DNA of 64,000 nt from Chlamydiae bacterium RIFCSPLOWO2_12_FULL_49_12 (GCA_001796315.1 MGME01000004.1:3795-67794); one strand, 5' to 3'; shown: positions 3,861 to 58,553, numbered from the stretch's first letter. The notes: a model not told the origin generated them from the letters alone. Program-made: numbers and translations.

Positions 3861-4025
3861 TGTACACAAGTTGATCCAAGAATCGGTTTTTGGCCAGCGC
3901 AAAAACTCCCGCGGTTGGCCTATCGTAAGTGGGTCAATATTAAACTAATATGGACCCATTTACGATAGGACAACCCCGGGGCTTGGGCGCGGCCCAAAAC
4001 CGATTCTTGAGTCAACTTGCGTATA
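3861..4025. repeat. Palindromic element, family A, copy A1 (165 bp hairpin)
   Basis: TGTACACAAGTTGATCCAAGAATCGG ... CCGATTCTTGAGTCAACTTGCGTATA with apex GGGTCAATATTAAACTAATATGGACCC. It sits between parA and the pGP6-like gene and overlaps the parA 3' end. Confidence 0.92.
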
Positions 4026-4778
4026 AATACGAGCCAGCACTTCCTTTGTTAAAGAAAGGTAATCGTGCGCCGCTCTGCTTTTTGGGGCTGTTTTAAAGAC
4101 GGGTTTTCCAAAGACCGAGGCTTCGGAGATGCGGATATCTCTTCGAATCTTCGACTGGAAGAGGCGCTCTGGAAAAGTCTCTTCAATGACTTCTAAAAAC
4201 GCTTGGTTGCTCTTTCCCCGCTCATTCCAAAAAGAGAGGGCGACGCCTACAATCGAAAAGGGGTGACGCTCGGCGATGTTTTTCATGAAGTGAGAGAGCC
4301 GCTGCAATCCTTTCACGCTGTAAAACTCCGGCGTTGCGCAGATAAGCGAGTGCTCTGCGGCGATGAGCGCAGATTCCGTGAGCCAGCAGAGCGAGGGGGG
4401 AGTGTCGATGAGGATGATCTCATAGCTTAAAGTTTTGAGCAGCGCTTTAAGGCGTTCATGGGAGTAGCGGTCGGCTGCCAGCACCCCTGTCACCTCGATG
4501 CGCTCCAGCCAGGTGTCTGCGGGAAGAAGATGAAGATTTTTCACTCCGGTCTTGACGATCACATCCTGGATCTTTTTTTTGCCTTGGAGCACAGGCGCAA
4601 GGCTGTCTTGCCTGTCCGGATCGTAACCGAGGCCTGTTGTCAAGTTGGCTTGCGCATCAAAATCAATCAAAAGGACCTTTTTTTTGTGAAAAAGCGCAAG
4701 CGCCGCTCCCACATGCAAGGCTGTAGAGGTCTTGGCCGTCCCCCCTTTAAAACTACTGACTGCAATGATCTTAGACAT
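3960..4778 (-). CDS. parA: ParA/MinD-family partition ATPase
   Basis: N-terminal deviant Walker A (SSFKGGTAKTSTALHVG) and ParA/Soj-like length. The last 21 codons (YTQVDSRIGFGPRPSPGVVLS) are encoded by repeat A1. Confidence 0.85.
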   Translation of the reverse strand: MSKIIAVSSFKGGTAKTSTALHVGAALALFHKKKVLLIDFDAQANLTTGLGYDPDRQDSLAPVLQGKKKIQDVIVKTGVKNLHLLPADTWLERIEVTGVLAADRYSHERLKALLKTLSYEIILIDTPPSLCWLTESALIAAEHSLICATPEFYSVKGLQRLSHFMKNIAERHPFSIVGVALSFWNERGKSNQAFLEVIEETFPERLFQSKIRRDIRISEASVFGKPVFKTAPKSRAAHDYLSLTKEVLARIYTQVDSRIGFGPRPSPGVVLS

Positions 4779-4788
4779 CTAAAAAAAA

Positions 4789-4850
4789 TGTTATTCCTCG
4801 CGAGAATCGATCTGGCTTTGCCGCGCAGCGCATCTTGGCGCTTGTTTAGG
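4789..4850. repeat. Half-copy of palindromic family C (C1, one arm only)
   Basis: TGTTATTCCTCGCGAGAATCGATCTGGCTTTGCCGCGCAGCGCATCTTGGCGCTTGTTTAGG aligns with the right arm of C3 (59279-59342). Confidence 0.8.
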
Positions 4851-7005: not shown

Positions 7006-8220
7006 ATGTTTTCGAGAGAGTTGGCCGGAACTTTAAAAAAATATGCCAAATTTCCGGTTGTTGCCTTATTAGGGCCCAGGCAGTCAGGAAAAACAACGCT
7101 AGTTCAAAATGTTTTTCAAAAGCATAAATTTTTGAGTTTAGACAATGAGATGACACAGATATTTGCATTGGAAGATCCTGAAGGCTTTTTATCAACCAAT
7201 GAGAATGAGCATGGGATCATTTTAGATGAGTTTCAGTATGCCCCAAAGCTTACAACGTATATTAAATTGGAAGCGGACAAAAAAAAACGGCCTGGTTACT
7301 TTATTTTAACAGGATCACAAAACTTTTTGGTAAATAAAGCAATTACCGAGTCTTTAGCCGGCAGAGTTGGCATATTAAATCTTTTACCGCTGTCTAATAA
7401 AGAGCTTTTTGAAAACAAATTAACCTCTGGAGCTCTGAACGAAATGATGTTCTATGGTGGGTATCCAAGAATTTATGCCGAAAATATTTTACCTACAGAA
7501 TTTTACCCTTCTTATATTTTATCCTACATTCAGAGGGATGTCGGGCAGTTCATAACACCCAAAAATATAGCTACCTTCCGGCGATTTGTTCAATTATGTG
7601 CTGGTAGAATTGGCCAATTATGCAATGTCCATGCTTTAGCCGCTGAAACGGGCATATCTTCTCCTACTGCCAAAGAATGGCTTTCTATATTAGAAGCAAG
7701 CTATGTTTTATTTTTTTTAGAACCTCATTTTCAAAATTTTAATAAAAGATTAGTTAAAACCCCGAAGCTGTATTTTTTTGATACTGGTCTAGCGTGTTCG
7801 CTCTTAAGAATCGACTCTCCAGAAGCGTTAAGCAATTCACATTTTCAGGGAGCTGTGTTTGAGTCTTTCATCATTTCCGATCTCTATAAGCAACAGTGCA
7901 ATGAGGGGCTTCGTCCTTCATTATATTTTTGGCGTGATAGCGGAGGAGCGCATGAAGTTGATTGTATTTTAGATCAAGGCGATCAATGTTACCCTATAGA
8001 AATAAAAGCAGGGAAAAGTGTTGCAAGCGACTCCTTCCGAGGGCTTGATTATTGGAATAAACTTGCCAATGTCAAGCCACAGAACTCCTATTTGATCTAT
8101 GCAAATGATGAAAAACAATTAAGAAAGCAAGGTAAAGTTATTGGATGGAAGGAGTCAAGCTCTTTATTAAGAAGTATTATTTCAGAAAAAAACGAAAGTA
8201 TTAACCCGAGACTCAAATAG
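7006..8220 (+). CDS. AAA+ ATPase with C-terminal DUF4143-like domain (COG1373-type)
   Basis: Walker A is LLGPRQSGKTTL and Walker B is IILDEFQ. The C-terminal half ends with a restriction-endonuclease-like segment (HEVDCILDQ...YPIEIK). Visibly more AT-rich than its neighbours. The first ATG is at 7006. Confidence 0.8.
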   Translation: MFSRELAGTLKKYAKFPVVALLGPRQSGKTTLVQNVFQKHKFLSLDNEMTQIFALEDPEGFLSTNENEHGIILDEFQYAPKLTTYIKLEADKKKRPGYFILTGSQNFLVNKAITESLAGRVGILNLLPLSNKELFENKLTSGALNEMMFYGGYPRIYAENILPTEFYPSYILSYIQRDVGQFITPKNIATFRRFVQLCAGRIGQLCNVHALAAETGISSPTAKEWLSILEASYVLFFLEPHFQNFNKRLVKTPKLYFFDTGLACSLLRIDSPEALSNSHFQGAVFESFIISDLYKQQCNEGLRPSLYFWRDSGGAHEVDCILDQGDQCYPIEIKAGKSVASDSFRGLDYWNKLANVKPQNSYLIYANDEKQLRKQGKVIGWKESSSLLRSIISEKNESINPRLK

Positions 8221-8360
8221 GTGACAAGATGCGCTGTGAGGCAAAGCCAGATCGATTCTCGCGAGGAATAACATTCTTGAATACGAAGGATTCCGAGCGA
8301 GAATCGATAGGGCAAAGACGCAACAAGCAGATTGTCACCTGTTTGAGGCTCGGGTTAATA
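8199..8360. repeat. Palindromic element, family C, copy C2 (162 bp hairpin)
   Basis: TATTAACCCGAGACTCAAATAGGTGACAAGATGCGC ... GCAGATTGTCACCTGTTTGAGGCTCGGGTTAATA. It overlaps the last codons and the TAG stop of the ATPase gene. Confidence 0.9.
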
Positions 8361-12367: not shown

Positions 12368-15300
12368 ATGGGAGCAGCTGGCATGGGTGCGGCGCCGTCT
12401 TGCAAGAAGGCCTTGTGTAAGGTTGTTGTGAGCAATCGTTTTGAAAGGCTCGCCGAGGCCCTGGGAGAACATCTCTTTACAGGAGCTCTTTTTGCTCAAA
12501 GAGTTGTGCTCGTTCCCGGCGCTTCTTTGAAAAACAGACTCCTCGATGCTCTGGCAAAAGATCCCAAATGGGGCATTGCTGCAGGAATGCGCTTTGATTC
12601 CATTGAAGGATTTCTCTCTTTTTCCCTAGAAAAAACGCAAGAGAAAAAGAGGCTTCCTTCCTGGTGGGAGCTCTCTTTGCTTTTGGAAGAAGAGATCGCT
12701 TGCATGGAAGAAAAAGAGAGAGAGCATCCTCTGTTAGGCTATCTTAACGCCATGCCCCAAAAAAAAGAGGGGAGGATCCGCTCTGTTGCCCGCCATCTGA
12801 GCGCTCTTTTTTTATCCTATGGTCTTTACGGGAAGGGATTTTTAGAAGAGTGGCTGCAAAAAGAGGGATGGAAGCAGGAGCTTTGGAAAAAGATCTTTAG
12901 AGACCGATGGACCTTTCCTCTTGAGTCTTTCCAAGACCTCGTCCTTCCTCCTGTGCATCTCTTCGGATTCTTTTCCCTTCCCTCTCTTTATCGCGAGCTT
13001 TTTAAAAAGAGCGCATCCATTTTTTATCTCCTTTCTCCAAGCCCGTTCTTCCTCGGAGACCTCCTATCCGATCGCGAGACGCTTTATGTGGAAAAAAGAG
13101 GAAGGGAGAGGAAGGTCTCTTTTCCTGAGAGAAGAGAGGTAGAACACTATCTAAAACAGCCCAATCGCTTTCTTGCCAACTTTGGAAAAGAGCGCCGGAA
13201 GCTTCTCTCTCTTTTGGAAGACGAGGAGGCTCTTGTGGAAGAGCGGTATGCAGAACCTCCGGAGCCCCAAACGCTTCTGAAAAGGGTGCAGGCGGATTTT
13301 TACCATTTGCGCAATCCCGAACAGGAGCTTCACGGCTCTCTCTTCGATCCCACGATACAGCTTCACAGAGCGCCTTCCAGATATCGGGAAGTGGAGATTT
13401 TAAAAGAAAATCTTCTATCCTTTGCAAAAAAAGGCGTCGCCTTGAAGGAGATGGCTGTTTTGGCGCCGGATCTAAAAAGCTATCTTCCCTATATCGAAGC
13501 TGTTTTGGGCGCCCGGGAGAACCCCCTCCCTTTTGCTCTTTTCGAGTGTAAGAAAAGAGATGCTTTCTCTTTTGCTCAAGGATTTTTACATCTTCTCTCC
13601 TTAAGGGGGAGTCGTTTTGAGAAAGAGGAGGTGCTCAAGCTCTTCTCTTTTCCCTCTTTCCGAAAAGGATGCAACATGGATCCCTCTGACGCAGAATGTT
13701 TTTGCAGCTGGATGCGAAAGAGCGCCCTGTTGTGGGGTTTTGATCGCACCCATCGAGAGCGGATCCTAAAAGGAGAAGAAGGATCTTTTCTAGTGCGCAC
13801 CGGAACATGGGAGTGGAGCTTTGAGCGACTTCTTTTTGGTCTTGCGACACTTGAGAGAACCCCTTTTTATTTTTCCTTAGATCTTGCCCCCTTGCCTTTG
13901 GTGAGCTTGACAGAGGCGGAACTCTTGGGAAAAGGGATTGACGCTATTCAAAGGATTTACAAAGCCACTTTGGAGATGGAAGAGAAAAAGCTGGGGTTTA
14001 GCGAGTGGGTTCGATTCTTTTCCGAGATGGCCGGAAATTTTTTCTTGATTAAAGAGGAAGAAAAGAGATTTTTTTTAGAGCTTGAAAGGATAGGGCGTAA
14101 GCTCTTTTCCTCAAGCAGCTTAGACCGAAAGAAAGTGACTGCTGAAAGAATGGGGTGCATTTTAAAAGAGTTTTTTCAGCAAAAAGAAGAGAGTCCGATT
14201 TCTTCAAATCGAGAAGTTGTCTCTTTCCATCCTTTAAAAGAAGGCAGCGTGCCCTCTGTTTCTGTTCTCTTTCTTTTAGGGATGCAGGAGGGGGCGTTTC
14301 CCCGAACAGAGAGAAAGAATCCTTTTCTTGACCCCGGCTTTGACATTCCCTCAAATCTGGATGAAGAGAGAAACCTCTTTTTGGAGGTGTTGCTGCTTGC
14401 AAAAGAGAGTCTTGTGATCAGCTGTTCCACTTCTTCCGACGAAGAGGGAGGAGAGCTCATGCCCTCTCTTTTTGTGCAGGAGCTCTTTTCTCATGTTGAA
14501 AAAGGAGGAGAGGAGAGGGAGCGCGCGATCGACTCTCTTTTTTTTCAGCATCCTCTCTTTAGTTTTGATGCCTCGTATTTTGACGAGAAGAGCTCTTTTC
14601 GCTCCCTCTCTCTCTCTCATTTTGCCGCAGCTAAAAGCTACTATCTCACTCCTTTAAGAGAAGAGTCCTCTCTTTTTGACCAGAGCGAGGAGGAAAAAAA
14701 AGAGCAGGGCGACAGGAGGGTTTCTGTACAACAGCTCCTAAAGCTAGCGCGCCATCCCATTCAATTTTTCTTCAATGAGACTTTGGGGATCTATTTTGAA
14801 AAAGAGGAGCAAGAGATAAGAGAGTTTACGCTCTCTTCCTACGATAAGGCCCGTCTCTCCCGCCTGGACCCATGCCTTCCTTTTGATGAGCTTGTGATGC
14901 AAGCCGAGGCTAAAGGAGAGCTCCCTCTTTGGCATTTTCGAGAGGTTGCAAAAGCGGCCCTTGAAGAAGAGAGAGAGGTGTACAAACGCGGACTTGAGGC
15001 ATGCGGCGTCGATCTAAAAGGCCTCTTGACGATTCTACTTCGGGAGGATCTTCAAGAACCTTTAGAGCCCCTTGCAGGGACTTTACACCTCCCCGCCCTA
15101 GAGGCTGCCATGCCGGACGGAAGAAGGGTAAAAATTGTCGGGACGCTTCGAGGAATCTCTTTGCAGGGCTTGCTTTTTCATGGAAGAGATAAGATCGAGG
15201 ATCTGGTTAAAGCGTGGCCCGCCTTCCTCGTCTTCCAGTGCCTTTCGCATCCGGCGCTAGAAGAAAAGAAGCTTCTTCTTACCAAAGCGGGGAAAGTCAA

Positions 15301-15589
15301 GAGCTTGTCTATCCAAGATCCTCTCTTAGCGCTTGGGCGCTATCTCAGTTATTTGGAAGAGAGCGAGCGGCGGATGAGCCCTTTCCTGCCGCGCTTTGCC
15401 GAAGCTTTTTTAAGAAAAGACGGGGCCGATCTGCAAAAGAGGCTCGCTTCTTTAGAAAAAGAGATCGCTATTTCGGGATCGGATCCCTATCTGGAATGGC
15501 TCTTTGCGCGGGAAAAAAAGAGAGATGCGGAGGGGATGATCTCCCGCTGGTCTTTGCTGCTTTGCGAGGCGATGGATGTTCTCCTTTGA
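12368..15589 (+). CDS. recC: Exodeoxyribonuclease V gamma subunit
   Basis: About 1070 aa immediately upstream of and overlapping recB. The N-terminus VVVSNRFERLAEAL...VLVPGASLKNRLLDALAKDPKWGIAAG is RecC-like. The true start may be GTG 12428. Confidence 0.8.
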   Translation: MGAAGMGAAPSCKKALCKVVVSNRFERLAEALGEHLFTGALFAQRVVLVPGASLKNRLLDALAKDPKWGIAAGMRFDSIEGFLSFSLEKTQEKKRLPSWWELSLLLEEEIACMEEKEREHPLLGYLNAMPQKKEGRIRSVARHLSALFLSYGLYGKGFLEEWLQKEGWKQELWKKIFRDRWTFPLESFQDLVLPPVHLFGFFSLPSLYRELFKKSASIFYLLSPSPFFLGDLLSDRETLYVEKRGRERKVSFPERREVEHYLKQPNRFLANFGKERRKLLSLLEDEEALVEERYAEPPEPQTLLKRVQADFYHLRNPEQELHGSLFDPTIQLHRAPSRYREVEILKENLLSFAKKGVALKEMAVLAPDLKSYLPYIEAVLGARENPLPFALFECKKRDAFSFAQGFLHLLSLRGSRFEKEEVLKLFSFPSFRKGCNMDPSDAECFCSWMRKSALLWGFDRTHRERILKGEEGSFLVRTGTWEWSFERLLFGLATLERTPFYFSLDLAPLPLVSLTEAELLGKGIDAIQRIYKATLEMEEKKLGFSEWVRFFSEMAGNFFLIKEEEKRFFLELERIGRKLFSSSSLDRKKVTAERMGCILKEFFQQKEESPISSNREVVSFHPLKEGSVPSVSVLFLLGMQEGAFPRTERKNPFLDPGFDIPSNLDEERNLFLEVLLLAKESLVISCSTSSDEEGGELMPSLFVQELFSHVEKGGEERERAIDSLFFQHPLFSFDASYFDEKSSFRSLSLSHFAAAKSYYLTPLREESSLFDQSEEEKKEQGDRRVSVQQLLKLARHPIQFFFNETLGIYFEKEEQEIREFTLSSYDKARLSRLDPCLPFDELVMQAEAKGELPLWHFREVAKAALEEEREVYKRGLEACGVDLKGLLTILLREDLQEPLEPLAGTLHLPALEAAMPDGRRVKIVGTLRGISLQGLLFHGRDKIEDLVKAWPAFLVFQCLSHPALEEKKLLLTKAGKVKSLSIQDPLLALGRYLSYLEESERRMSPFLPRFAEAFLRKDGADLQKRLASLEKEIAISGSDPYLEWLFAREKKRDAEGMISRWSLLLCEAMDVLL

Positions 15590-18500
15590 CGTGTTGGATC
15601 GAAACTTGAAGGTGGAAGGAGGGCTCTTCCTGGAGGCTTCCGCAGGCACAGGGAAGACCTTTGCCATTCAGCACCTTGTTTTGCGCCTACTTCTTGAAAA
15701 AGAGGCCCCCTTAACGTTGGATCAAATTTTGGTTGTGACTTTTACGCGCGCTGCCACACGCGAGCTCAAGCGGCGTATCCGCTCCCATTTAGAAGCAGCG
15801 CATGCGCAGCTGAGCGCTAAAAGCTCCGAGTGGGACTATCTCAACGCTCTTCTCGAATCAGGAGAGGAGAGAGTCTACGAGGCGGCCAAGCGCGTGGAAG
15901 CGGCTCTTCTCTGTTTTGAGGAGGCGCCTATCTTTACGATCCATGGATTTTGTCATCGGCTTCTGAAGGAGACCGCCTTTGAAGCAGGGGTTGGACTGGA
16001 CCTTTACGACAGCGCCTCCGATAGCCTAAACGTACAATGGAAAGAGACGCTTTTTGACGCTTTCCGGACGGAACTCTGCCCGCCGAGCTTTTCAGCCTCT
16101 CAAATCCGCCATCTCTTAAGCCGAGGAGGCGGGGATCTCTACAAGCTCGCGGACGAGCTTTACGCTTTGATTCAAAAAGATAAAGAGATCCCCCTCTTCC
16201 TGGAATTTGGAGAGCTCTTTGTTGCCTTTCGAGAAAGGATAGCGGCGCTCTCCCGGCGTTTTTTGCTCTCTCAAGAGAGGCTTCTTGTCGACTTTCAAAC
16301 CCACGCCTCCTGTTACAAGGAGATGACAGGTCCTGCCTTTAAGGAGCAAATGGAGCTGCTCTCTTCGCTATTAGAAAAAGGAGAGGTTGAAAAGCAAGAG
16401 TTTGACGCCTGCCTTCGGCAGCGGGAGTTTTTTTTAGAAAAAATGGTTCTTTCAAACAAAAAGGCGCGCTCTTTTCCTCCTTCAACAAGCGCTCTTCATT
16501 ATCCCGGTTTAGCCCAGGCTTTGAACGAAGAGATTCTTCCCCTCATTTCTCAAGGAAAGGATCCCAGGCAGTTGTTGCTGCGCCTGGCATCCGGGGCGCA
16601 CAAGCGCATGGAGGCCCTCGCCTCGGAGCAAGAAGAGCTTTCTCCCGACGCTCTTTTGAAAAAGACGGAAGAGGCTCTTTGCGACCCTGAGATTCTTATT
16701 AGAGTGAGAGAGAAGTTTCGGGCCGTCATCATGGATGAATTCCAAGACACCGATCCCATCCAATGGAGGATTGTCAAGCGGCTTTACAGGCCAGAGGCGG
16801 CTCCCTCCCTCTATCTTGTCGGAGATCCGAAGCAGGCCATCTATGGATTTCGAAAAGCGGATGTCTATTCCTATCTTTTGGCCGCTTCGCTCTTTTCAAA
16901 AAAGAGACATTTTTTTCTCACTACTAATTATCGCTCTGAGCCCTCTTTGATCCATGCGCTCAATACCCTCTTCTCCTATACTAAGTCCTGGCTTCCTCTT
17001 CCTGCGCAAAAAAAAGCCCTTTCTTGTCCGGCGCTCTCCCCTGCCCCCGGAAAGAGCGCGTCAGAGATTGAAGATGGAAAGAAGAGCGTCCATTTTTTTC
17101 TCTCCGAAGGGAGATTAGGAAGAGAGGGAAGCTGGCCGACGCTTCAGATCGAATGCGATCTCTTGTTTCCCTTTCTTGCAGAGGAAGCGGTCCGTCTGCA
17201 TAAAGAGAGAGAAATTCCTCTGGAGCAGATGGCTTTTTTGGTGAAAGATCGCTTTCAAGCAGAACGCCTTCAGCTCTTTTTTCACGGTAAAAACATCCCT
17301 GCTGTTTTAAAAAGAAAACAGGAGGCGGCGCGCTCTTTAGCTCTTCTTCCGATGAAAGAACTTCTCGAAGCCGCCTGGTCCCCCGGCGACTTGAGTGCGC
17401 TGAAAAGGGCGTTGGGATCATCTCTTTTCCTATGGGATCTTCAGCGCCTCATAAGCCGCGAAGAGGTTGCGCGCATCCAGCCCTTTTTCTTTGAGCTCAA
17501 AGAGGCGTGGAGAGAGGGCGGCGTGGGCCTTCTCTACGAGAGAGTGCTTCAGAGCGGCGTCCTAGAGAGACTGCTAGCCGCTAAAGAGCTCGCTCTGTAT
17601 GCCGACCTCCAACTCCTGGCAGCGCTTCTCATGGAGAAAGAGGCTCAAGAGTCTCTGCAGCCGCAAGAGGTGATAAAATTTCTTAGACGCCTCAAAAATG
17701 AAGAAGAAAAAGCCCCGCTTCCTGCCTCCCCGGCCCTGGGAGGGGTTCAGATCCTGACGCTCCATATGAGTAAAGGGTTGGAGTTTGAGGTGGTCTTTGC
17801 TTTGGCCCTTGCCTCACGCCACCTGAAGCTTGAAGAGTTTGTCTCTGTGAAAGAGAAGACAAAAGAGTGGCTTGTTCCCCTCTCTTTAGATCCGAGAACA
17901 AAGAGCGTCCTTCTTGAAAAGGATGCCGAAAAGCTCAGGCAGCTCTATGTGGCGCTGACGCGGGCAAAAAGGCGCGTCTATATCCCCGTCGTCTTGGACG
18001 AAGGAGAGAACAACGTGCCGATGGGGACGGCTTCTCCTCTGGAGATCTTTCTTGGCCGGCTTCTCTTAAAAGAAGAAGGGTGCGATTTGGAGCGGGTGTA
18101 TGCCTTGCAGCTTCCTCTTGCACGCGACCGCGTTTTTTCCCTTCTTGATGACCTGAAAGCCTCCGCTCCTTTTTCCCTTGAGGTTCTTGCAAACAAAGAG
18201 AGTCCGCCCTTTAGCCCGGCTTCCCTCCTCCCCTCTTTGATTCCTCCGGATCCCTTCGCGCCCGCCTTTCCTGCAGAACCTGTTCTCTCCTTCTCTTCAT
18301 TGACGCGAAAAGAAGAGAGCGCAAGCGCGCCGTTTAAACTTCCCTCGGCGACAACTCTTCACGCCCTTCCCCCTGGAGCGGAAACAGGAGTGCTGCTCCA
18401 TGCCCTTTTTGATAAGATCTTCCTCTATGAGCTTTATTCTCCCTATGCCAAAGATAAGATCCGCCTTCTTGTCGAAAATGAGATAGCAGCCACCGCTCTT

Positions 18501-18941
18501 CAAGGCTTAGAAGAAGAGGTCTGTACGCTGATACAAGGGGTCTTTCACCTTCCCCTTTTAGACGGGCGGGAGGCTTTTTCTTTGAGCCAGCTTAGGCCGG
18601 GCGAGGTGCTTTCCGAATTTGAGTTTGTCCACCCTTCCCCAAGGGGGCTGATCAAAGGATTCATTGACCTCGCCTTTCTCAAAGAGGGAAAGTACTATCT
18701 TCTCGACTGGAAATCCAACTTTTTGGGAGAAGATGATGAGGCTTACGCGGAAGAGAAATTGAGAGAAACAATGGAGCAAAAGGATTATTTTTTTCAGGCC
18801 TCTCTCTATGCAGGCGCCCTGAAGCGTTATCTGGAACTCTTTGATCCACGTCCATTTAAGGAGATATTCGGAGGAGCTTTGTATCTCTTTGTCCGCGCGA
18901 AGAGAGTGTATCGCTTTTTCCCAAATCTGTTTTCATGGTAA
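15576..18941 (+). CDS. recB: Exodeoxyribonuclease V beta subunit (helicase-nuclease)
   Basis: UvrD-type motifs are present: EASAGTGKTFAI, VVTFTRAATRELK, TIHGFC, IMDEFQDTD, LVGDPKQAIYGFRKAD, TNYRS. The C-terminal nuclease motif is GFIDL...YYLLDWKSN. Confidence 0.92.
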   Translation: MFSFDVLDRNLKVEGGLFLEASAGTGKTFAIQHLVLRLLLEKEAPLTLDQILVVTFTRAATRELKRRIRSHLEAAHAQLSAKSSEWDYLNALLESGEERVYEAAKRVEAALLCFEEAPIFTIHGFCHRLLKETAFEAGVGLDLYDSASDSLNVQWKETLFDAFRTELCPPSFSASQIRHLLSRGGGDLYKLADELYALIQKDKEIPLFLEFGELFVAFRERIAALSRRFLLSQERLLVDFQTHASCYKEMTGPAFKEQMELLSSLLEKGEVEKQEFDACLRQREFFLEKMVLSNKKARSFPPSTSALHYPGLAQALNEEILPLISQGKDPRQLLLRLASGAHKRMEALASEQEELSPDALLKKTEEALCDPEILIRVREKFRAVIMDEFQDTDPIQWRIVKRLYRPEAAPSLYLVGDPKQAIYGFRKADVYSYLLAASLFSKKRHFFLTTNYRSEPSLIHALNTLFSYTKSWLPLPAQKKALSCPALSPAPGKSASEIEDGKKSVHFFLSEGRLGREGSWPTLQIECDLLFPFLAEEAVRLHKEREIPLEQMAFLVKDRFQAERLQLFFHGKNIPAVLKRKQEAARSLALLPMKELLEAAWSPGDLSALKRALGSSLFLWDLQRLISREEVARIQPFFFELKEAWREGGVGLLYERVLQSGVLERLLAAKELALYADLQLLAALLMEKEAQESLQPQEVIKFLRRLKNEEEKAPLPASPALGGVQILTLHMSKGLEFEVVFALALASRHLKLEEFVSVKEKTKEWLVPLSLDPRTKSVLLEKDAEKLRQLYVALTRAKRRVYIPVVLDEGENNVPMGTASPLEIFLGRLLLKEEGCDLERVYALQLPLARDRVFSLLDDLKASAPFSLEVLANKESPPFSPASLLPSLIPPDPFAPAFPAEPVLSFSSLTRKEESASAPFKLPSATTLHALPPGAETGVLLHALFDKIFLYELYSPYAKDKIRLLVENEIAATALQGLEEEVCTLIQGVFHLPLLDGREAFSLSQLRPGEVLSEFEFVHPSPRGLIKGFIDLAFLKEGKYYLLDWKSNFLGEDDEAYAEEKLRETMEQKDYFFQASLYAGALKRYLELFDPRPFKEIFGGALYLFVRAKRVYRFFPNLFSW

Positions 18942-18951
18942 TAGTAGAGAC

Positions 18952-20217
18952 ATGACGGAAATTAGCATGGAAGCAATCCGGCTCTTCCAAAGGAGCCGAT
19001 TTTTCCGGGGGCTTACGGAACGGCAGATGCGCGAACTTATCCCCCTGGTGCGTAAGATCCAATTCGATGCGGGCGATTACATTGTCCACGAGGGAGATCT
19101 TGCCAATGATCTCTTCGTGATTCTGGAAGGAGAGGTCGATGTCATTAAAAAAGAGCCCTCTTCCGAACAAAGGCACCGCCTGACCAAACTCACCCAAGAA
19201 GACATTTTCGGAGAAATGTCCTTGATTGAACAGGGAACCCATTCGGCAACGGTGCGCGCGGTCAAGCCCACGACGCTTCTTGCGCTCTCGATCAATGAAG
19301 CGCGGATGCTCTCTTCTGAAAAGTCAAATTATGAAAGACTGAGGCAGAAGATGCGAGGGATTATCGAGGAGATCGACTTTCTGTCCCGAGAGCAGCCGAC
19401 CTATTTTAAGCTTTCGACAAATCTGGCGACAGAGCTCTCCTTGAGGCTTAGGCAGGCCAATGAAGTGACCGTCGACTCTCTTAAGGGACAGCTCCATGAA
19501 GCGCGCTCGAGAGTTGCGATGGGAAGCTTCATGATCAATGTTCTGACGATGCTGGTCCTATATGTCTTTTCGCTCAAGGCCATCTCGACCTTTGGAGAAG
19601 AGGGACTTTCTACTGCCATTATCTCGGTCCCCCTCATTGTTCTCTTTGCCTGCGGGCTCATCGTGATGATGAAATCGCATGGCTATCCTTTAAGCTTTTA
19701 CGGCCTCACGCGGAAGAATTGGAAGCGGAGCGCTTTCGAAGGGGTTCTGATTTCCATTCCTCTCATCGCTCTCTGTACGCTCATAAAATGGTTTTTGATC
19801 ACCTTTATTGAAGGGTTTGAAGGCGTGCGCCTCTTTAGCTTCACTTTAGGCATCAATTCCGATTACTTAGGCAAGGTTCCCCTCTTCGTCATTGTTATCC
19901 TGCCCCTCATCTATCTGCTCTTCACCCCTCTTCAGGAGTTGATTTCCCGAGGCGCTCTGCAGAGCTCGCTTGAGGAATTTCTGGTCGGAGCGCACAAACA
20001 GTGGTGGGCTATCCTCCTCTCTAACCTTCTTTTTAGCGTCACTCACCTGCACGTCTCTTTTGAAATGGCGCTCGCCGTCTTCATTCCCGGTCTGGCCTGG
20101 GGCTGGCTTTACTCTCGCCAGCGTAGCCTGGTGGGCGTCTCCGTGTCCCATATGGTGGTCGGCAGTTTTGCCTTCTATATCTTAGGAGTCCAGGGAGTTT
20201 TGACCGTAAATCCTTAA
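18952..20217 (+). CDS. Cyclic-nucleotide-binding-domain protein fused to a CPBP (CAAX/Abi-type) intramembrane protease domain
   Basis: The N-terminal cNMP fold is FFRGL...GDYIVHEGD...FVILEGEV...FGEMSLIEQGTHSATVRA. Several TM helices follow, then CPBP motifs QELISRG (EExxxR-like), FSVTH (FxxxH) and SHMVVG. ATG 18952 follows the recB stop. Confidence 0.75.
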   Translation: MTEISMEAIRLFQRSRFFRGLTERQMRELIPLVRKIQFDAGDYIVHEGDLANDLFVILEGEVDVIKKEPSSEQRHRLTKLTQEDIFGEMSLIEQGTHSATVRAVKPTTLLALSINEARMLSSEKSNYERLRQKMRGIIEEIDFLSREQPTYFKLSTNLATELSLRLRQANEVTVDSLKGQLHEARSRVAMGSFMINVLTMLVLYVFSLKAISTFGEEGLSTAIISVPLIVLFACGLIVMMKSHGYPLSFYGLTRKNWKRSAFEGVLISIPLIALCTLIKWFLITFIEGFEGVRLFSFTLGINSDYLGKVPLFVIVILPLIYLLFTPLQELISRGALQSSLEEFLVGAHKQWWAILLSNLLFSVTHLHVSFEMALAVFIPGLAWGWLYSRQRSLVGVSVSHMVVGSFAFYILGVQGVLTVNP

Positions 20218-20218
20218 G

Positions 20219-20285
20219 CTCGACTTTGCACCATTTGCGATGGCGCCTCCTTGAAATTCGGCTGTCGCAAATTGACAACGTCGAG
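20219..20285. repeat. Short hairpin element (F1), related to the arms of family G/E
   Basis: CTCGACTTTGCACCATTTGCGA...TCGCAAATTGACAACGTCGAG. The internal GGCGCCTCCTTGAAATTCGGCTGTCGCAAATTG resembles the G1 right arm and F2. Confidence 0.7.
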
Positions 20286-20291
20286 ATAAAC

Positions 20292-20456
20292 TATACACAA
20301 GTTAACTCAAGAATCGGTTTTCGGCCAGCGCGAAAACTCCCGCGGTTGGCCTATCGTAAAGAGGTCAATATTAAGTTAATATGAACCTCTTTACGATAGG
20401 TCAACCCCGGGGTTTTGGCGCGGCCCAAAGCCGATTCTTGAGCTAACTTGTGTATA
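20292..20456. repeat. Palindromic element, family A, copy A2 (165 bp)
   Basis: TATACACAAGTTAACTCAAGAATCGG ... CCGATTCTTGAGCTAACTTGTGTATA with apex GAGGTCAATATTAAGTTAATATGAACCTC. Confidence 0.92.
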
Positions 20457-20507
20457 TTCTATAATGGACGAGTGATACGCAACCTGCTTAAAAAATCAGG
20501 AGCTTAA

Positions 20508-20541
20508 GCCCAAACCCGATTCTTGAGTCAACTTGTGTATA
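20508..20541. repeat. Solo terminal arm of family A (about 34 bp)
   Basis: GCCCAAACCCGATTCTTGAGTCAACTTGTGTATA equals the right terminus of family A. It contains the first in-frame start candidates of recD. Confidence 0.8.
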
Positions 20542-40592: not shown

Positions 40593-41699
40593 ATGCGTAT
40601 TTTGCATACGGAAAGCTCTTCAGGCTGGGGTGGTCAGGAGATCCGCATTTTGACGGAGGCGGAAGGGATGCGCATGCGCGGCCATGAGATAGTCTTTGCT
40701 GTCTCACAAGGAGGAGGTCTTGCTCTTCAGGCAAGGAAAAAGGGCTTTATTGTCTATGAAGTGAGTTTTAAAAAAAGAGCCTTATTCAAGACGCTTCTTT
40801 TGCTGCTTCAACTGATGCGCCGTCATGAGATCCAGCTTGTCAATACCCATTCTTCGTGCGACGCCTGGATGGGAGGATGCGCCGCGCTTTTGATGCGAAA
40901 GAAGATCATTCGGACGCGGCATCTTTCGACGAGCATTCGAAAAGGACTCAACAGCCTTCTCTTGTATCGGCTTCTTGCGGATTATGTAGTGACCACCTCC
41001 TCATGCGTTATTCCCATGATCTGTAAGCAGGCGAAAAGAAAGCCGGAGCATTGCGTCTGTATTCCCACGGGAATTGACCCTTTGCTCGTGAAAGCCAACG
41101 AAGAAGAGGTCTTGCGTTTTCGCGCCTCCTTGGGAGTAATGGATGAGGATTTTCTTGTAGGAACGGCCTGTTTTGTGCGCTCCTGGAAAGGGATTTTTGA
41201 TTTTTTGAAAGCAGCCCACTCGCTGAGAGAGGAAAAGCATCTCAAGTGGATCATTGTGGGAGGTGGTTATCTCCGAGAATATCAAAGAGTTGCAGAGGAA
41301 ATGGGTCTAGGTTCCGCTGTTATTTTTACCGGCCATCTCGACGCTCCCTACGCAGCCCTTGCGGCTATGGATCTCTTTGCATTGCTGAGTACCGCCAATG
41401 AAGGGATCTCCCAAGCCGCTCTGCAAGCCGCCTACTTGAAGCGGCCCCTTATTACCACTCCCATCGGCGGATTGCCGGAAGTATGCAAAGATCAACAGAC
41501 GGGAATGATCATTCCTCCCCGGGCGCCAAAAGAGTTTGCCAAGGCCGTTCTTTTGCTCAAAAATAATTCTCTTCTTCGCGAAGAAATGGGACGAAAAGGG
41601 CGAAAGCTGGTTGAAGAGAGGTTCATGCGCAAGCAGATGCTGGATAATCTGGAGGAAGTCTATGCAAAACTATACCATGTCGAGTTAAAGGGGAAATGA
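40593..41699 (+). CDS. GT4-family glycosyltransferase
   Basis: MRILHTESSSGWGGQEIRIL is a GT-B N-terminus and the C-terminal half contains EGISQAALQAAYLKRPLITTPIGGLPE (EX7E-like region). The ORF-track start at 40440 lies inside repeat G1 and was dropped. Confidence 0.75.
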   Translation: MRILHTESSSGWGGQEIRILTEAEGMRMRGHEIVFAVSQGGGLALQARKKGFIVYEVSFKKRALFKTLLLLLQLMRRHEIQLVNTHSSCDAWMGGCAALLMRKKIIRTRHLSTSIRKGLNSLLLYRLLADYVVTTSSCVIPMICKQAKRKPEHCVCIPTGIDPLLVKANEEEVLRFRASLGVMDEDFLVGTACFVRSWKGIFDFLKAAHSLREEKHLKWIIVGGGYLREYQRVAEEMGLGSAVIFTGHLDAPYAALAAMDLFALLSTANEGISQAALQAAYLKRPLITTPIGGLPEVCKDQQTGMIIPPRAPKEFAKAVLLLKNNSLLREEMGRKGRKLVEERFMRKQMLDNLEEVYAKLYHVELKGK

Positions 41700-42355: not shown

Positions 42356-42520
42356 TATACACAAGTTGATTCAAGAATCGGTTTTGGGCCGCGCCAAAGC
42401 CCCGGGGTTGGTCTATCGTAACTGGGTCCATATTAGTTTAATATTGACCCAGTTACGATAGGCCAACCGCGGGAGCTTTCGCGCTGGCCCAAAACCGATT
42501 CTTGAATCAACTTGTGTATA
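42356..42520. repeat. Palindromic element, family A, copy A4 (inverted orientation)
   Basis: TATACACAAGTTGATTCAAGAATCGG ... CCGATTCTTGAATCAACTTGTGTATA. The asymmetric internal arms are in the opposite order to A1-A3. Confidence 0.92.
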
Positions 42521-55599: not shown

Positions 55600-55793
55600 A
55601 AACTTTTAAATGGTTTATTAATAATTGTAAATTATTATATCAAAATTATATTTATTAGTAAAGATTAACTAAATCTCTAATAGATTGATTGTTAGTGGCT
55701 TGTTGTAGCAAGTCCGGTTTTTATTTCTGAGTGGTTGTGAGAAAGGGGAAGTAAAGCGTATTCTTGATCCGGCTCACAATATTAAGGAATTCT

Positions 55794-58391
55794 ATGGGTT
55801 GTTATCTAACCTCTTTAGCTGCAGTTCTTTTTTTAACTTTTTCACTCTTTTCAGGAGAGAGAGGCCCTTTGCTGCGCGCTAAAGAGCCCCACTGGCGGCC
55901 CACCATTGTGGAGACCTATCCCGAAGGCCAGCCCATGCGTGTTGTTTATGTTGAAGAGTTGGAAGGGGGCGAGCTAAAAGAATGGAAACAGGTCACATTC
56001 TACGCGACGGGACAGATCCAGGAGGAAGTTGATCTAGTCCGCATTTCCAAAGAGGCGCCGGCTTTTTCCCTGTGGAATAAAGAGCATGTTCCTCACGGGG
56101 CCTCTCTTGTCTACTATCCCAACGGGGCTCTGGAAAAAATTGCTTATTTTACTCAAGGATTATTGGATGGTCAATGCACCCTCTATTTTCCCGATGGCAA
56201 AGAGCGCTTGAAGTGCACTTATAAAGAAGGAAAGTTCGACGGGCCGATTGTCGCCTATTTTGAAGATGGGACAAAATCCAAAGAGGGATGTTACAAAGAA
56301 GGCAAACTGCACGGCGATCTCATCCAGTACTTCTCCAAGGGAGGCCGCTCTTCGCTTGTCACCTATCTCGAGGGGGTTCCACACGGCTCTTCGAGCGAGT
56401 GGTATGAGAATGGTGTTTTGAAAGCTTCCCGCCATTACCATAAAGGGCTTTTACATTCTGACGGGAAAAATCCTGCAGTCATTCTCTACAACGAAGAGAG
56501 AGGGATTCAGGAGGCTCAGGATTTCAAACAGGGAAAGCCCGTGGGTATCCACATCCAATACCACTCCAACGGGAAGGAGAGTTACAAGGTTTCCTACGTA
56601 GACGGACAAAAGGAGGGGAAGGAAATCCATTTTTCCACTACCGGAAAAGTGAAAGGAGAGGGTGAATATGAGCGGGGCGCGCCAAAGGGGCGGCATTGGA
56701 GAGATCATGAAAATGGAGCGCCGGCCTTAAGGGCGCTCTATGATGAAAATGGAAATTTTGCAGAGCCGCTTGTGACCTTTGGAGAAAATGGCAAAAAGCT
56801 CTCGCAATATAGACTTTCAAAAGAGGGCTCCTTTGAAGGGGAGTATCTAAGCTGGTATGAAGAAGGTCAGCCCAAGGAGGAGTTCCGCTACGAAAAGGGA
56901 GTTAAAAGCGGCGAGCAGCGAGAGTTCTATCCTTCAGGGCAGATGAAGGAGAGAGCTTTTTACGATGCAGGGATGAAAGAGGGTATTTTTGAGAGCTGGC
57001 ATGAAAATGGCAAGCTTGCAAAACAAGCGACCTATCAAAAAGGGAGCAGGGAAGGCAAGGCGGAAGAGTGGTTTTCGGACGGTCGCCTAAAATGTCAGGA
57101 ATGCTACCGGCAAGGAGAACTCGAAGAAGAGAAAAAAGAATGGTTTGAGAGCGGGGTGTTGCATTTGTCCGGATGTTTTAGCAAAGGAAAAAAGAGCAAG
57201 GAGCATTGCGAATGGAATGAGAAGGGGGAACTCGTCTTTCAGGGCAGTTATGTTGACGGTCTTCCCGACGGGTTGGTGACTCTTTGGTGGAAAGATGACA
57301 AAATCCGCGAGCGGATTCATTTTAACAAGGGAAAGAGAGAGGGGATAGACGAAGAGTTCTATCTGGACGGAAGCCCCAAGGCCCGTGCCCATTACAGAGA
57401 TGATCAGGTCGATGGTCTCTTTGAAACCTGGCATGAGGGCGGTGGTATCCATCAGATCAAGACGTTTAAACTGGGAAAGCCCGTTGGAGAACAGAAAGAG
57501 TATTTCTCGAAACAAGAGATCGGTGAACAGGGAGCGGAGGTTCTCTCCTACCATTACCACTATAATGAAGAGGGAAAGCTTCATGGGGAGCAAAGGACCT
57601 ATTATCCCAATGGGAGGATTCAAACGGTCATTACGTATGACGGAGGTTCTCTTGAGGGAAGAAAGGCTCTATGGGATGAAGAGGGGGCTCTTTTAGAAGA
57701 GGCCTTTTACGAAAAAGGACAGCTTCATGGGCGCCACTTTGAAAGAGGACAAAGGAAAGAAGAGATCATCACCCACTACAAAAACAACAAAAAAGAGGGC
57801 GTCCATGAGATCTATTATCCCGCCAATGACTACTTTGGGAGAGTACGAGCTCTTGAAGCGCGTTTCGTTTCCGACAAGCTCGAGGGAGATGTCGTGGAGA
57901 ATAATGAGGCTGGAACAATAATTGCAAAGACCCCTTACAGGAATGGAAAGAAGGAAGGGATTGCCGAGCTTTACTTTCCCAAAGGGGCGATGATGATGAA
58001 GATATCTTACAAAGAGGGGAAGAAAGAGGGGCCGGCTATCCGATTCTTTGAAAACGGGAACACCCAAAGAGAGGTCTCTTTTGTCGCCGATTTTAAGGAG
58101 GGGGATGAAAAGAGCTATTTTGAAAATGGTCAGCTTGCCTCTTTCATCCAATTTAAACAGGACAAGATCGACGGCAACTATCAGGAATGGAATGAACAGG
58201 GAATACTTCTCTTTGATTCCGAATACAAAGAAAATAAACGCCACGGAAAATTTAATAAATACGACGAGGAGGGAAAACCCTATCTTTTGCAAACCTTTGT
58301 CGATGACGAACTCGACGGCATCAAAAGGCGTTATGAAAAGGATGGATCCATCACAGAGACCCGGTACAGCAAAGGAAAAAAACTTGACTAG
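55794..58391 (+). CDS. Large MORN-variant / YwqK-like repeat protein
   Basis: Signal-like N-terminus, then more than 25 iterations of a ~23-aa unit (Y.NG.....Y..GK.(D/H)G....(Y/W)). AAGGAA lies upstream of ATG 55794. The TAG stop lies in the first bases of repeat D1. Confidence 0.8.
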   Translation: MGCYLTSLAAVLFLTFSLFSGERGPLLRAKEPHWRPTIVETYPEGQPMRVVYVEELEGGELKEWKQVTFYATGQIQEEVDLVRISKEAPAFSLWNKEHVPHGASLVYYPNGALEKIAYFTQGLLDGQCTLYFPDGKERLKCTYKEGKFDGPIVAYFEDGTKSKEGCYKEGKLHGDLIQYFSKGGRSSLVTYLEGVPHGSSSEWYENGVLKASRHYHKGLLHSDGKNPAVILYNEERGIQEAQDFKQGKPVGIHIQYHSNGKESYKVSYVDGQKEGKEIHFSTTGKVKGEGEYERGAPKGRHWRDHENGAPALRALYDENGNFAEPLVTFGENGKKLSQYRLSKEGSFEGEYLSWYEEGQPKEEFRYEKGVKSGEQREFYPSGQMKERAFYDAGMKEGIFESWHENGKLAKQATYQKGSREGKAEEWFSDGRLKCQECYRQGELEEEKKEWFESGVLHLSGCFSKGKKSKEHCEWNEKGELVFQGSYVDGLPDGLVTLWWKDDKIRERIHFNKGKREGIDEEFYLDGSPKARAHYRDDQVDGLFETWHEGGGIHQIKTFKLGKPVGEQKEYFSKQEIGEQGAEVLSYHYHYNEEGKLHGEQRTYYPNGRIQTVITYDGGSLEGRKALWDEEGALLEEAFYEKGQLHGRHFERGQRKEEIITHYKNNKKEGVHEIYYPANDYFGRVRALEARFVSDKLEGDVVENNEAGTIIAKTPYRNGKKEGIAELYFPKGAMMMKISYKEGKKEGPAIRFFENGNTQREVSFVADFKEGDEKSYFENGQLASFIQFKQDKIDGNYQEWNEQGILLFDSEYKENKRHGKFNKYDEEGKPYLLQTFVDDELDGIKRRYEKDGSITETRYSKGKKLD

Positions 58392-58553
58392 TGCTCTGTC
58401 AACATTCAAATTGCGGATGCGCTAGCGCGAAAGCTGCCGAATTTCAACGATCGCAAGTGCCTTAGTATTAGAAATACAAATGGCACGTGCGATCGTTGAA
58501 ATTCGGCGCTTTGGCGCCGCGCATCCGTAATTTCAATGTTGACAGAGCACTAG
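58388..58553. repeat. Palindromic element, family D, copy D1 (166 bp hairpin)
   Basis: CTAGTGCTCTGTCAACATTCAAATTGCGGATGCGC ... GCGCATCCGTAATTTCAATGTTGACAGAGCACTAG. It shares the ACGATCGCA...TGCGATCGT core and the GCGAAAGC/GCTTTGGC core with family B. Confidence 0.9.

Follow-up and report, generated by a model that had tools for sequence, protein, structure and literature searches.

Environmental Chlamydiota probably carry a single superfamily of non-autonomous DNA transposons (bacterial MITEs), near-palindromic, ~165 nt long and TA-inserting, which would be mobilised by a TA-duplicating transposase acting in trans and whose arm pairing would be constrained at the level of DNA. A sequence-only reading of a 64-kb stretch of chromosomal DNA from an uncultured chlamydia-like bacterium (the window) had reported hairpin families that share an internal motif with a conserved mismatch, and had suggested that the folded form is recognised or selected. 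Our results confirmed that observation, which proved much broader than first seen, and partly supported its interpretation.

Eight hairpin-shaped elements in the window

The window contains eight near-palindromic, TA-flanked elements (A1-A4, B1-B3 and D) of 164-168 nt, with arms that are 83-100% complementary; their small size and terminal inverted repeats are those of MITEs. The inverted repeats lie where they had been reported, and an arm alignment reproduced the pairing described. Terminal-repeat patterns gave 9, 6 and 2 matches in the window against 0 expected, and covariance-model E-values for the window copies ranged from 1e-13 to 1e-27. The shared 10-mer is by itself weak evidence (17 matches vs 9.6 expected). 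The features are as follows.

361-524, minus strand: element B1 (TA to TA); core 392-494, alpha arm leading on the minus strand; terminal repeats matched at 361-386 and 499-524; model match 57.4 bits, E = 2.9e-13; arm alignment
3861-4025, plus strand: element A1; core 3891-3995; model 87.8 bits
20292-20456, plus strand: element A2; core 20322-20426; model 99.3 bits
20508-20541, plus strand: solo A-type right terminal repeat; terminal-repeat pattern with one mismatch
22067-22230, minus strand: element B2; core 22098-22200; model 108.8 bits
35867-36031, plus strand: element B3; core 35897-36000; model 95.6 bits
36512-36676, plus strand: element A3, the reference copy; core 36542-36646; model 105.8 bits
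36548-36558 and 36633-36641: motif GCGCGAAAGCT / CTTTGGCGC in A3, exact
42356-42520, minus strand: element A4; core 42386-42490; model 109.4 bits
58389-58552, plus strand: element D, including the flanking TAs; core 58419-58522; model 100.6 bits
58425-58435 and 58509-58517: motif GCGCGAAAGCT / CTTTGGCGC in D, exact

B1 is the most decayed of these copies, A1 has a mutated left terminus (TGTAC), and the outer 35-nt arms of A4 are 100% complementary. The solo A-type repeat lies ~50 nt downstream of A2 and has neither partner nor core. D belongs to an outer-arm class that differs from the others (TA followed by GTGCTCTGTCAAC). The asymmetry of the elements does define an orientation, as had been proposed, since the model scores of the two strands are 15-30 bits apart, and the flipped copies are as described: A4 relative to A1-A3, B3 relative to B1 and B2, and, in family C, the copy at 59208-59354 relative to that at 8199-8360. 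When other palindromic elements are included, the window holds ~13 per 64 kb.

A ~100-nt core is joined to unrelated outer arms

The covariance model recovered the same ~100-nt core in chlamydial MAGs and metagenomes, ~170 distinct copies in all, and there it is joined to at least six unrelated outer-arm classes. The model matched the 8 window copies and 91 places across 79 sources of genome loci, including MAGs of Parachlamydiaceae, Waddliaceae, Simkaniaceae and Rhabdochlamydiaceae, and metagenome contigs added >90 further distinct copies; such a number of dispersed copies is likewise a feature of MITEs. The core box reads GCGC-G-AAAGC-T-CCCG-C-GG and faces GCGC-C-AAAGC-CCCG-G-GG on the other arm, followed inwards by a CGATCG-type inner stem and a TATT...AATA apex. 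The outer arms, ~30-35 nt per side, are sharply family-specific in sequence and always self-complementary. Measured from AAAGC to the terminus, the arm spans 40-44 nt in every outer-arm class. Each class is TA-flanked, the flanks of the D class being mostly C-TA...TA-G.

The shared core is therefore far larger than the 11 nt first noticed. The motif GCGCGAAAGCT / CTTTGGCGC, which had been attributed to families A, B and D, is exact in A3, A4 (flipped) and D; the B copies carry the version ACGCGAAAGCT, and A1 and A2 carry the degenerate versions GCGCAAAAACT and GCGCGAAAACT. The termini of the families had been called unrelated, but those of A and B are homologous, A4 and B2 being 76% identical over 138 nt (E = 3e-21).

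A viral or plasmid origin was rejected: no plasmid matched the element, and the 67 pattern matches in viral contigs were at chance level, with just two weak hairpins under the model and no element. A cyanobacterial origin, suggested at first by GCGATCGC-like motifs that recall HIP1, was also rejected, since the proteins and contigs of the window belong to chlamydia-like MAGs from groundwater, the core occurs in chlamydial MAGs and the gene content of the window is chlamydial (a UPF0137/ParA pair, aminotransferase-MreC, RecBCD and RpoD).

The arms evolve by paired substitutions

In a covariance alignment of ~50 representatives, 94.9% of cells were paired and 36 of 43 pairs showed double changes. 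Double-change cells numbered 399, compared with 107 +/- 13 after shuffling and at most 94 when partners were slid, and Watson-Crick pairing stood at 94.4% over 171 distinct copies. The arms thus evolve by paired substitutions, and the strong covariation in both the representatives and the ~170 distinct copies shows that arm complementarity is actively maintained. The paired changes reported for family A are real (GTG../..CAT, AGA../..TCT and CTG../..CAG), the inner stem of A2 being the compensatory variant AGAGG/CCTCT. The DNA fold of A3 has a free energy of -72.9 kcal/mol (z = -19), and the unpaired positions of this copy are visible in it: an extra A at 36547, G.G at 36552/36637, an unpaired T at 36558, C.C at 36563/36627, A.G at 36587/36603 and a loop at 36594-36596.

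Irregular positions of the helix recur in different families

Three or four irregular positions in the helix are kept from family to family; the unpaired T, the C.C mismatch and the apex-proximal mismatch add to the G.G mismatch noticed first. We counted them in a sample that had not been selected for these sites, which were left free (84 copies; 93 for the apex site). Site 1 (G.G, sometimes C.C) was non-paired in 69/84 copies (82%), the unpaired T bulge was present in 76/84 (90%), site 2 (the C.C mismatch) was non-paired in 73/84 (87%), and the apex-proximal mismatch was non-paired in 69/93. At the 84-copy sites, non-pairing thus amounts to 82-90%, against ~5% at ordinary stem positions. The two bulges are ~11 nt apart, as are the two homo-mismatches, a spacing that would place each pair on one helical face.

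The mismatch position is not invariant: site 1 is paired in 15/84 copies, and within the window the claim of a G.G mismatch in every copy is slightly overstated, because A1 carries A.G and G.G is found in 7 of 8. Families in which site 1 or the apex site is paired remain multi-copy, so no single irregularity is essential. What stands of the proposal that the folded form is recognised or selected is that some folded or two-arm form matters, because pairing is maintained and the irregularities, though not invariant, are retained. Two local structures were considered and rejected: GCGAAAGC as a GNRA or DNA mini-hairpin, since in the minimum-free-energy fold the box pairs with the opposite arm, and a CGCG...CGCG stem in the alpha arm, which is not conserved in D-type or GCGTC-type families.

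It is unlikely that the irregularities are functionless, inherited from one ancestral copy while palindromy is renewed by arm-to-arm conversion or fold-back regeneration and not by selection. Arm-to-arm conversion does occur, as the few fully symmetric copies (those at loci L102 and L254) indicate; flipped apex and box states (A.G vs C.T, G.G vs C.C) look like inversions by inter-arm recombination; and proliferation continues after the loss of one site. However, conversion or fold-back would erase the irregularities, and all three were regularised together in just ~3/96 copies. Furthermore, the same sites recur in at least six outer-arm classes despite many double substitutions elsewhere in the stem, and although one substitution would suffice to restore pairing at each mismatch, 82-87% are unpaired, compared with ~5% at ordinary positions.

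Pairing fits a constraint on DNA better than on RNA

The sequence-only reading had allowed for the folded form to be RNA. It is quite improbable that selection acts on the core as a structured RNA, whether a cis-acting hairpin in 3' UTRs or a small RNA, which the mobile arms merely disperse. The strong covariation, the very stable fold, the position of the elements at gene 3' ends, where co-transcription would occur, and a weak bias towards the beta arm coming first in the transcript (35 vs 19, p = 0.04) would all accord with it. However, there is no wobble excess: in a model-free count, G.T pairs numbered 43 and A.C pairs 44, or 31 and 34 in the presumed transcript sense. A strand-specific excess of 149:96 in model-fitted alignments vanished in the model-free count and was discarded as a fitting artefact. 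Both element orientations relative to genes occur, no Rfam 15 family reached its gathering threshold at an element (in the window, only two tRNAs do so), and a relaxed Rfam search of the element returned just matches to microRNA-precursor hairpins, far below threshold. A scan of A3 and D found no sigma-70-type promoter in the core, outward or inward, and the elements scanned contained no promoter-like site and no convincing terminator. Since G.T is no commoner than A.C and the orientation bias is weak, RNA-level selection is not supported and a DNA-level constraint fits better.

Elements insert at TA, mostly at gene 3' ends

A filled and empty pair of sites shows the insertion directly: locus L256 reads CTAA-TA-[TACC...GGTA]-TA-AGAG and locus L272 reads CTAA-TA-AAAG, so that a single TA becomes TA-element-TA, a target-site duplication as in MITEs, with the qualification that TA on both sides is also formally compatible with a one-TA element inserting beside TA. 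At L049, set against L046 and L093, an element of another palindromic family has inserted in a nested position, in agreement with TA duplication plus one substitution. Other assemblies of the same species yielded no empty sites, as their contigs end at the repeat.

Most copies lie at the 3' ends of genes, in many cases within the stop codon; 54 of 108 element-facing stop codons fall inside the element. In the window, a RecD-like ORF (20523-22151) terminates within B2, an ORF on the minus strand (36663-37718) has its stop codon inside the right arm of A3, and the TAG stop (58389-58391) of a MORN-repeat ORF (55764-58391) is formed by the left TA of D and the first G of D. The neighbours are housekeeping genes (ThrRS, RecBCD, RpoD, MutY and others), among which the copies stand singly.

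Search for a mobilising enzyme

In ~1.6 Mb of locus sequence flanking the elements, we found neither an autonomous element nor a transposase whose ends match theirs. The sole transposase seen was of the IS5 type (L194), with ends unrelated to the elements, and no IS630 transposase was seen in the loci examined; IS630 elements duplicate TA, often within CTAG, but other elements duplicate TA too. Orphan terminal repeats separated by 0.5-3.5 kb were considered as an autonomous partner and rejected, as they enclose host genes (a methyltransferase, an oxidoreductase and a putative MBL-fold hydrolase-like ORF); repeat-flanked ORFs likewise comprised only host genes between two MITEs, and the unrelated IS5-type transposase. 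No Y1/HUH or integrase gene was found among 33 window ORFs scanned, nor beside the elements in the loci.

A hairpin-specific transposase had been suggested as the reader of the folded form. Transposases of the HUH kind are less likely than a TA-duplicating DDE enzyme, because the arms are inverted over their full length, TA stands on both sides of the filled site and the empty site has a single TA; no transposase of either kind was found in the loci. In its more general form, the idea is that an enzyme specific for structured single strands, either an HUH/Y1-like transposase or a recombinase with integron-attC-like logic, reads the mismatches and the extrahelical T of one folded strand, while the outer stem needs only to pair; this seems to us quite improbable. 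It would account for irregularities that are conserved and strand-defining, for outer arms whose sequence is nearly free while pairing and length are kept, and for the lack of a DDE partner in the flanking sequence; the TA duplication is also formally indistinguishable from insertion beside TA. Against it stand the gene search above, the nature of known HUH substrates, which are short subterminal hairpins with neither full-length inverted arms nor bilateral TA, the reversed relative polarity of site 1 and the T bulge in some families, and the continued spread of families lacking single irregularities.

Comparison with known systems

Bacterial MITEs have been described as <200 bp long, with inverted termini, 5'-TA-3' at their ends and long stem-loops (PMC2229807). 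The chlamydial elements resemble Correia/NEMIS of Neisseria and the MITEs ERIC, RUP and RPE in being 100-200 bp and non-coding, with inverted termini, TA at the ends or duplicated, intergenic dispersal, often at gene ends, and long stem-loops with scattered mispairs (PMC2229807). Unlike that class, they pair along the whole 80-nt arm and repeat the same bulge and mismatches across families; and whereas a MITE family is usually defined by its terminal repeats, here an internal ~100 nt is conserved and the termini vary. RUP of Streptococcus pneumoniae, mobilised by IS630-Spn1 and a model of trans-mobilisation by an IS630-family transposase, shares the TA target and small size (PMC2229807), but it has one type of terminal repeat, which matches a known IS, while the chlamydial elements have many and no matching IS was found in the ~1.6 Mb of loci. 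The host phylum, Chlamydiota, goes unmentioned in a 2024 review of prokaryotic MITEs, and no description of these elements was found in the literature searched.

The elements also appear to share covarying stems and an extrahelical-base logic with integron attC sites and with the imperfect palindromes of IS608 (IS200/IS605). In those systems, single-stranded DNA is folded, and the strand and the protein are specified by conserved extrahelical bases and mispairs instead of by the primary sequence; attC sites, which end in GTTRRRY, are arranged in cassette arrays beside intI, and IS608 hairpins are short and subterminal and make no duplication. In contrast, the chlamydial elements are scattered among housekeeping genes, TA-flanked and conserved in box sequence. 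They are not integron attC sites, as the copies are single and the termini are not GTTRRRY; nor REP/BIME with RAYT (a 20-40 nt unit, a GTAG/CGTC head and a Y1 gene), as the units are ~165 nt with the termini TAC.., G.. or AGGG.. and none of the 33 window ORFs scanned matched Y1_Tnp; nor IS200/IS605-derived palindromes with short subterminal hairpins, insertion on the 3' side of a fixed tetra- or pentanucleotide and no terminal inverted repeats or duplication, as the arms are inverted over their full length with TA on both sides.

A model for mobilisation

For the MITE superfamily proposed here, the mobilising enzyme would be a DDE transposase that duplicates TA and acts in trans, either IS630/Tc1-mariner-like or a member of the IS5 group. 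The pairing constraint would act on DNA, a hairpin or cruciform setting the two TA-flanked ends side by side, and we infer that the irregular box may be kept because the transposase, or a DNA-binding protein of the host, recognises it or bends the DNA there. As a counterpoint, many outer-arm classes are present together in one genome and would need many transposases if the ends were recognised by sequence. A bolder version, which we regard as tentative and on balance unlikely, is that the irregular core and not the terminal sequence is recognised: the mobilising machinery would bind folded DNA (hairpin or cruciform) that bears the in-phase bulges and homo-mismatches, and would measure the point of cleavage ~41 nt away, at the stem-base TA. 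Pairing would then be the sole requirement on the outer arms, and the occurrence of dozens of unrelated terminal repeats on the same core would be accounted for.

Significance

Little is known of genome dynamics in the environmental chlamydiae, which live as obligate intracellular bacteria and carry a recently mobile MITE superfamily at high density. This superfamily rewrites the 3' ends of genes, breaks short-read assemblies, in which contigs end at the repeats, and may create hybrid elements, consequences that bear on the assembly and interpretation of Chlamydiota MAGs. Its inverted conservation, with core and helix defects constant, ends free and arms complementary, is a natural experiment on what MITE mobility needs. 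Core recognition, if true, would be a structure-guided form of MITE transposition independent of terminal-repeat sequence, and recognition of the folded core would link DDE-type MITEs to the structure-reading logic of attC and IS200/IS605.

Hairpin elements in the window and their shared core

An inverted-repeat scan found long near-palindromes where the sequence-only reading had placed them, and arm-to-arm alignment sorted the elements into families A (four copies), B (three) and D (one), all copies being 164-168 nt long. Terminal-repeat patterns matched the window 9, 6 and 2 times, against 0 expected from shuffles. A covariance model built on the internal ~100 nt of the elements (R1) matched exactly these eight copies in the window, with E-values of 1e-13 to 1e-27, and scored 15-30 bits higher on the favoured strand than on the other, which gives every copy a definable orientation: the arm designated alpha comes first on the plus strand in A1, A2, A3, B3 and D, and on the minus strand in A4, B1 and B2. 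The alpha arm reads x-GCGC-G-AAAGC-T-CCCG-C-GG and the beta arm, as its reverse complement, GCGC-C-AAAGC-CCCG-G-GG. Folding one upon the other leaves an extra base before GCGC, a G.G mismatch (site 1), an unpaired T and a C.C mismatch (site 2). The DNA fold of the reference copy, A3, has an energy of -72.9 kcal/mol (z = -19), with unpaired positions exactly at these irregular sites.

The initial observation, that families with unrelated termini share a core with a conserved mismatch and paired changes, was confirmed with corrections. The G.G mismatch, which had been placed in every copy, occurs in seven of the eight copies here, A1 having A.G instead; it was the sole irregularity noted, the extra base, T bulge and C.C mismatch having been missed. 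An exact 11-mer said to be common to A, B and D occurs in A3, A4 and D, but in no other window copy. The termini are unrelated only in part: the outer arm of D is genuinely different, whereas A and B align collinearly as homologues along almost all of their length (76% identity over 138 nt, E = 3e-21). The paired changes within family A are genuine.

Distribution and host genes

The window genes are chromosomal housekeeping genes of chlamydial flavour, including a UPF0137/ParA pair and genes for ThrRS, RecC, RecB, RecD, RpoD, an aminotransferase followed by MreC, a secretin and a Ser/Thr kinase, and the window proteins were matched in groundwater metagenomes and in the MAG GCA_003485605.1. A genome-wide pattern scan together with the model located the core at 91 places, in MAGs labelled Parachlamydiaceae, Waddliaceae, Simkaniaceae, Rhabdochlamydiaceae or Chlamydiae, and in a few MAGs labelled Verrucomicrobiae, uncultured bacterium or Alphaproteobacteria; a metagenome scan added more than 90 further distinct copies. 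Among the carriers, the Microflora Danica MAGs CAVQMM01, CAVULX01 and OY970179 are near-complete. Non-chlamydial pattern matches were due to chance and lacked the hairpin, and scans of viral contigs and of plasmids for the core returned nothing genuine. MAGs titled 'Chlamydia trachomatis' (CAMAVL01; loci L004, L012 and others) and 'Waddlia chondrophila WSU 86-1044' (CAMCWV01; L014, L016 and others) are riddled with elements and look like mislabelled environmental chlamydiae.

Other features of these loci were also recorded. The RecC, RecB and RecD-like genes of the window (12368-22151) are not contiguous: between RecB and RecD lie a cNMP-binding/CAAX-protease-like gene (18841-20217), element A2 and a solo A-type right terminal repeat (20508-20541), which is ~50 nt downstream of A2, overlaps the start of the nominal RecD-like ORF and may be the remnant of a second, deleted copy. 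A family of ~295-aa proteins with no Pfam match occurs in tandem arrays on several chlamydial contigs (L229, L233 with four in tandem, L121, L237 and L313).

Inverted pattern of conservation

Among ~146 distinct copies, information content was high in a box from -5 to +14 around AAAGC, in the inner CGATCG..AA stem and at the TATT/AATA apex, and near zero in the outer 25-30 nt. The outer arms belong to many classes, in all of which complementarity extends to 40-44 nt from AAAGC.

Outer-arm classes, read inward from the flanking TA
TACC...
GTGCTCTGTCAA...
(A)GGGCTCGTAAA... and GGGACTGTGAAG...
GCTTGACAAAGTCAC...
ACTCACCTTACGC...
GTGTCTAATTGC...
others

An ordinary MITE family has common termini around an interior that is free to vary, whereas the chlamydial elements show the reverse. 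Several arm classes coexist in one genome, with A/B and D in the window and at least four classes in the MAG CAMAVL01; under strict terminal-repeat recognition, several transposases would therefore be needed.

In some elements the outer arms on the two sides of a single core belong to different classes (L048 5159-5259, L222 1934-2038, L215 1689-1792, L259 1921-2023, L108 201-303 and others); these arose either by inter-family recombination at the common core or as chimeras when short reads were assembled. Derivatives include a 270-nt variant with the same outer arms and a different interior, ~75-nt short forms whose apex is the GCG(C/A)AAAGC box, and half-deleted copies (L016 1278-1550; L278 ~4784 and ~11794; L241 ~3637; L252 ~481).

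Covariation between the arms

For covariation analysis, 50 representatives were aligned by MAFFT and not by model fitting. RNAalifold found a single hairpin of 43 pairs in this alignment, and both sides had changed in at least one sequence at 36 of them.

Pairing in the MAFFT alignment, observed and shuffled
Cells paired: observed 94.9%, shuffled 76.5%
Double-change cells: observed 399, shuffled 107 +/- 13
Covariation score: observed 0.49, shuffled 0.15

The observed pairing values were reached by none of 500 shuffles, and when partners were slid by 1-3 columns, pairing was 33-46% and double-change cells numbered at most 94. In a set of 171 distinct copies, Watson-Crick pairs made up 94.4% of cells, indicating that complementarity has been maintained through extensive sequence turnover.

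Retention of the irregular sites

Because G.G was a requirement of the genome scan, the metagenome scan was run with a beta-arm pattern unconstrained at the irregular positions. In the 84 distinct copies that this pattern selected, site 1 was non-Watson-Crick in 69 (G.G 64, C.C 4, A.G 1), the T was unpaired in 76, with a C bulge in 2 more, and site 2 was non-Watson-Crick in 73, with C.C in 65. The fourth site lies five pairs below the loop and was unpaired in 69 of 93 copies (A.G 33, A.A 20, C.T 10, T.T 6); ordinary stem positions are unpaired at ~5%. These sites recur in nearly all outer-arm classes but are not invariant: site 1 is paired in multi-copy families, as C-G in the TAACTCACC class and G-C in a TATACCTGACTCGG class, and a family with a paired apex site is also multi-copy.

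Some families are swapped, with C on the T-bulge arm and G on the other (GCGTCAAAGCT vs GCGTGAAAGC), and the apex site is seen as A.G or flipped C.T. These swaps are most simply read as the result of arm-to-arm recombination that inverted the inner segment. Fully symmetric copies (L102, L254) amount to ~3 of 96, showing that arm-to-arm conversion happens, but rarely. Since conversion would erase the sites and one substitution would repair each, their 82-90% retention, in stems substituted repeatedly in both arms, suggests maintenance by selection. On the same strand, ~11 nt separate the extra base from the T bulge, and the G.G and C.C mismatches are ~11 bp apart; this spacing places each pair of irregularities on one helix face, a geometry that would be favourable for contact with a protein or for bending in a set direction.

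Insertion at TA and gene 3' ends

One clean filled/empty pair was found, on two contigs from the same metagenome with flanks 95-99% identical: the empty site, L272, reads ...TTCTAA-TA-AAAGCGG..., and the filled site, L256, ...TTCTAA-TA-[TACCGCC...GCGGTA]-TA-AGAGCGG.... At L049, compared with L046 and L093, an element of another palindromic family sits in the apex of a third family, consistent with a TA duplication if one substitution is allowed. Most D-class copies have the flanks C-TA...TA-G. Where a gene 3' end faces an element, the stop codon lies inside it in 54 of 108 cases, and the median gap is ~0. In the window, the ParA-like ORF ends inside A1, the RecD-like ORF inside B2 and the glycerophosphotransferase-like ORF inside A3, and the stop of a MORN-repeat ORF is a TAG formed by the duplicated TA and the first G of D. 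These mobility and gene-end properties are shared by the TA-flanked bacterial MITEs reviewed in PMC2229807, of which RUP, mobilised by IS630-Spn1, is the best-documented case.

A full element in L203 (4019-4121) corresponds to only ~20 nt of terminal-repeat-like TATACCTAGCGCGGCCTATA in L260 (~1598-1620); these may be the footprint of an excision or the product of an extreme internal deletion. Short-read MAG contigs often start or stop inside elements (L012, L018, L033, L044, L049, L061, L064, L068, L102, L106, L110 and L123-L126), with the core there identical between contigs; the elements break assemblies, and the contig-end copies are probably collapsed consensus sequences.

Other palindromic repeats in the window

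Family C, which has no GAAAGC core, consists of separate TA-flanked palindromes with termini TTAACCCGAG.CTCAAA.AGGTGACAA, and three further assemblies of the species (L001-L003) contain the same copy. The 160-nt near-palindrome at 40384-40543 may represent a different MITE class.

Additional repeats, in window coordinates
8199-8360, family C copy
59208-59354, family C copy, reversed and partial
4784-4837, family C fragment
40384-40543, near-palindrome, 87% complementary, flanked by the 5-nt direct repeat CTTTA and not by TA; overlaps the end of a MutY-like ORF (39367-40440) and the nominal start of a glycosyltransferase ORF (40440-41699)
25594-26045, region of two tRNA-Ala genes (CGC and GGC anticodons) within 91-nt direct repeats, 91% identical, and of the two palindromes listed next
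25683-25791, 109-nt palindrome separating the tRNA-Ala repeats
25886-26045, 160-nt palindrome following them, with a relative in L044

Nature of the constrained form

Selection on the hairpin in a transcript should leave G.U far in excess of A.C on the transcribed strand. This was not so: a model-free count over 30 inner-stem positions in 93 copies gave 43 G.T and 44 A.C, and a gene-sense count in 45 copies between co-directional genes gave 31 and 34, a test that is informative and not decisive, most mispairs being probably recent mutations in dead copies. A G.T excess of 149:96 in model-fitted alignments was a fitting artefact, gone in the model-free count. Orientation relative to flanking genes was weakly biased (same 19, opposite 35; p = 0.04, uncorrected for redundancy), no Rfam family matched at threshold, and no promoter-like site was found in the elements. 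Altogether, the constraint looks strand-symmetric, and DNA, as duplex inverted repeats, hairpin or cruciform, fits it better than RNA. Of the earlier proposal that the folded form is recognised or selected, constraint on a folded or two-arm form stands, but RNA and a hairpin-specific transposase are its less likely versions.

No autonomous partner was found in ~1.6 Mb around the elements, which is absence of evidence and not evidence of absence, but makes the coexistence of arm classes in one genome more puzzling. Orphan terminal repeats 0.5-3.5 kb apart enclosed host genes, inverted-repeat-flanked ORFs were host genes between two MITEs, and the only transposase seen (L194, with DDE_Tnp_1 and DUF772 domains) has ends unrelated to the elements.

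In our literature search, no paper described MITEs from environmental chlamydiae, and chlamydiae go unmentioned in a 2024 review of prokaryotic MITEs. The elements are a TA-inserting bacterial MITE of a known kind, unusual in their host phylum, their inverted conservation pattern and their conserved helix defects.
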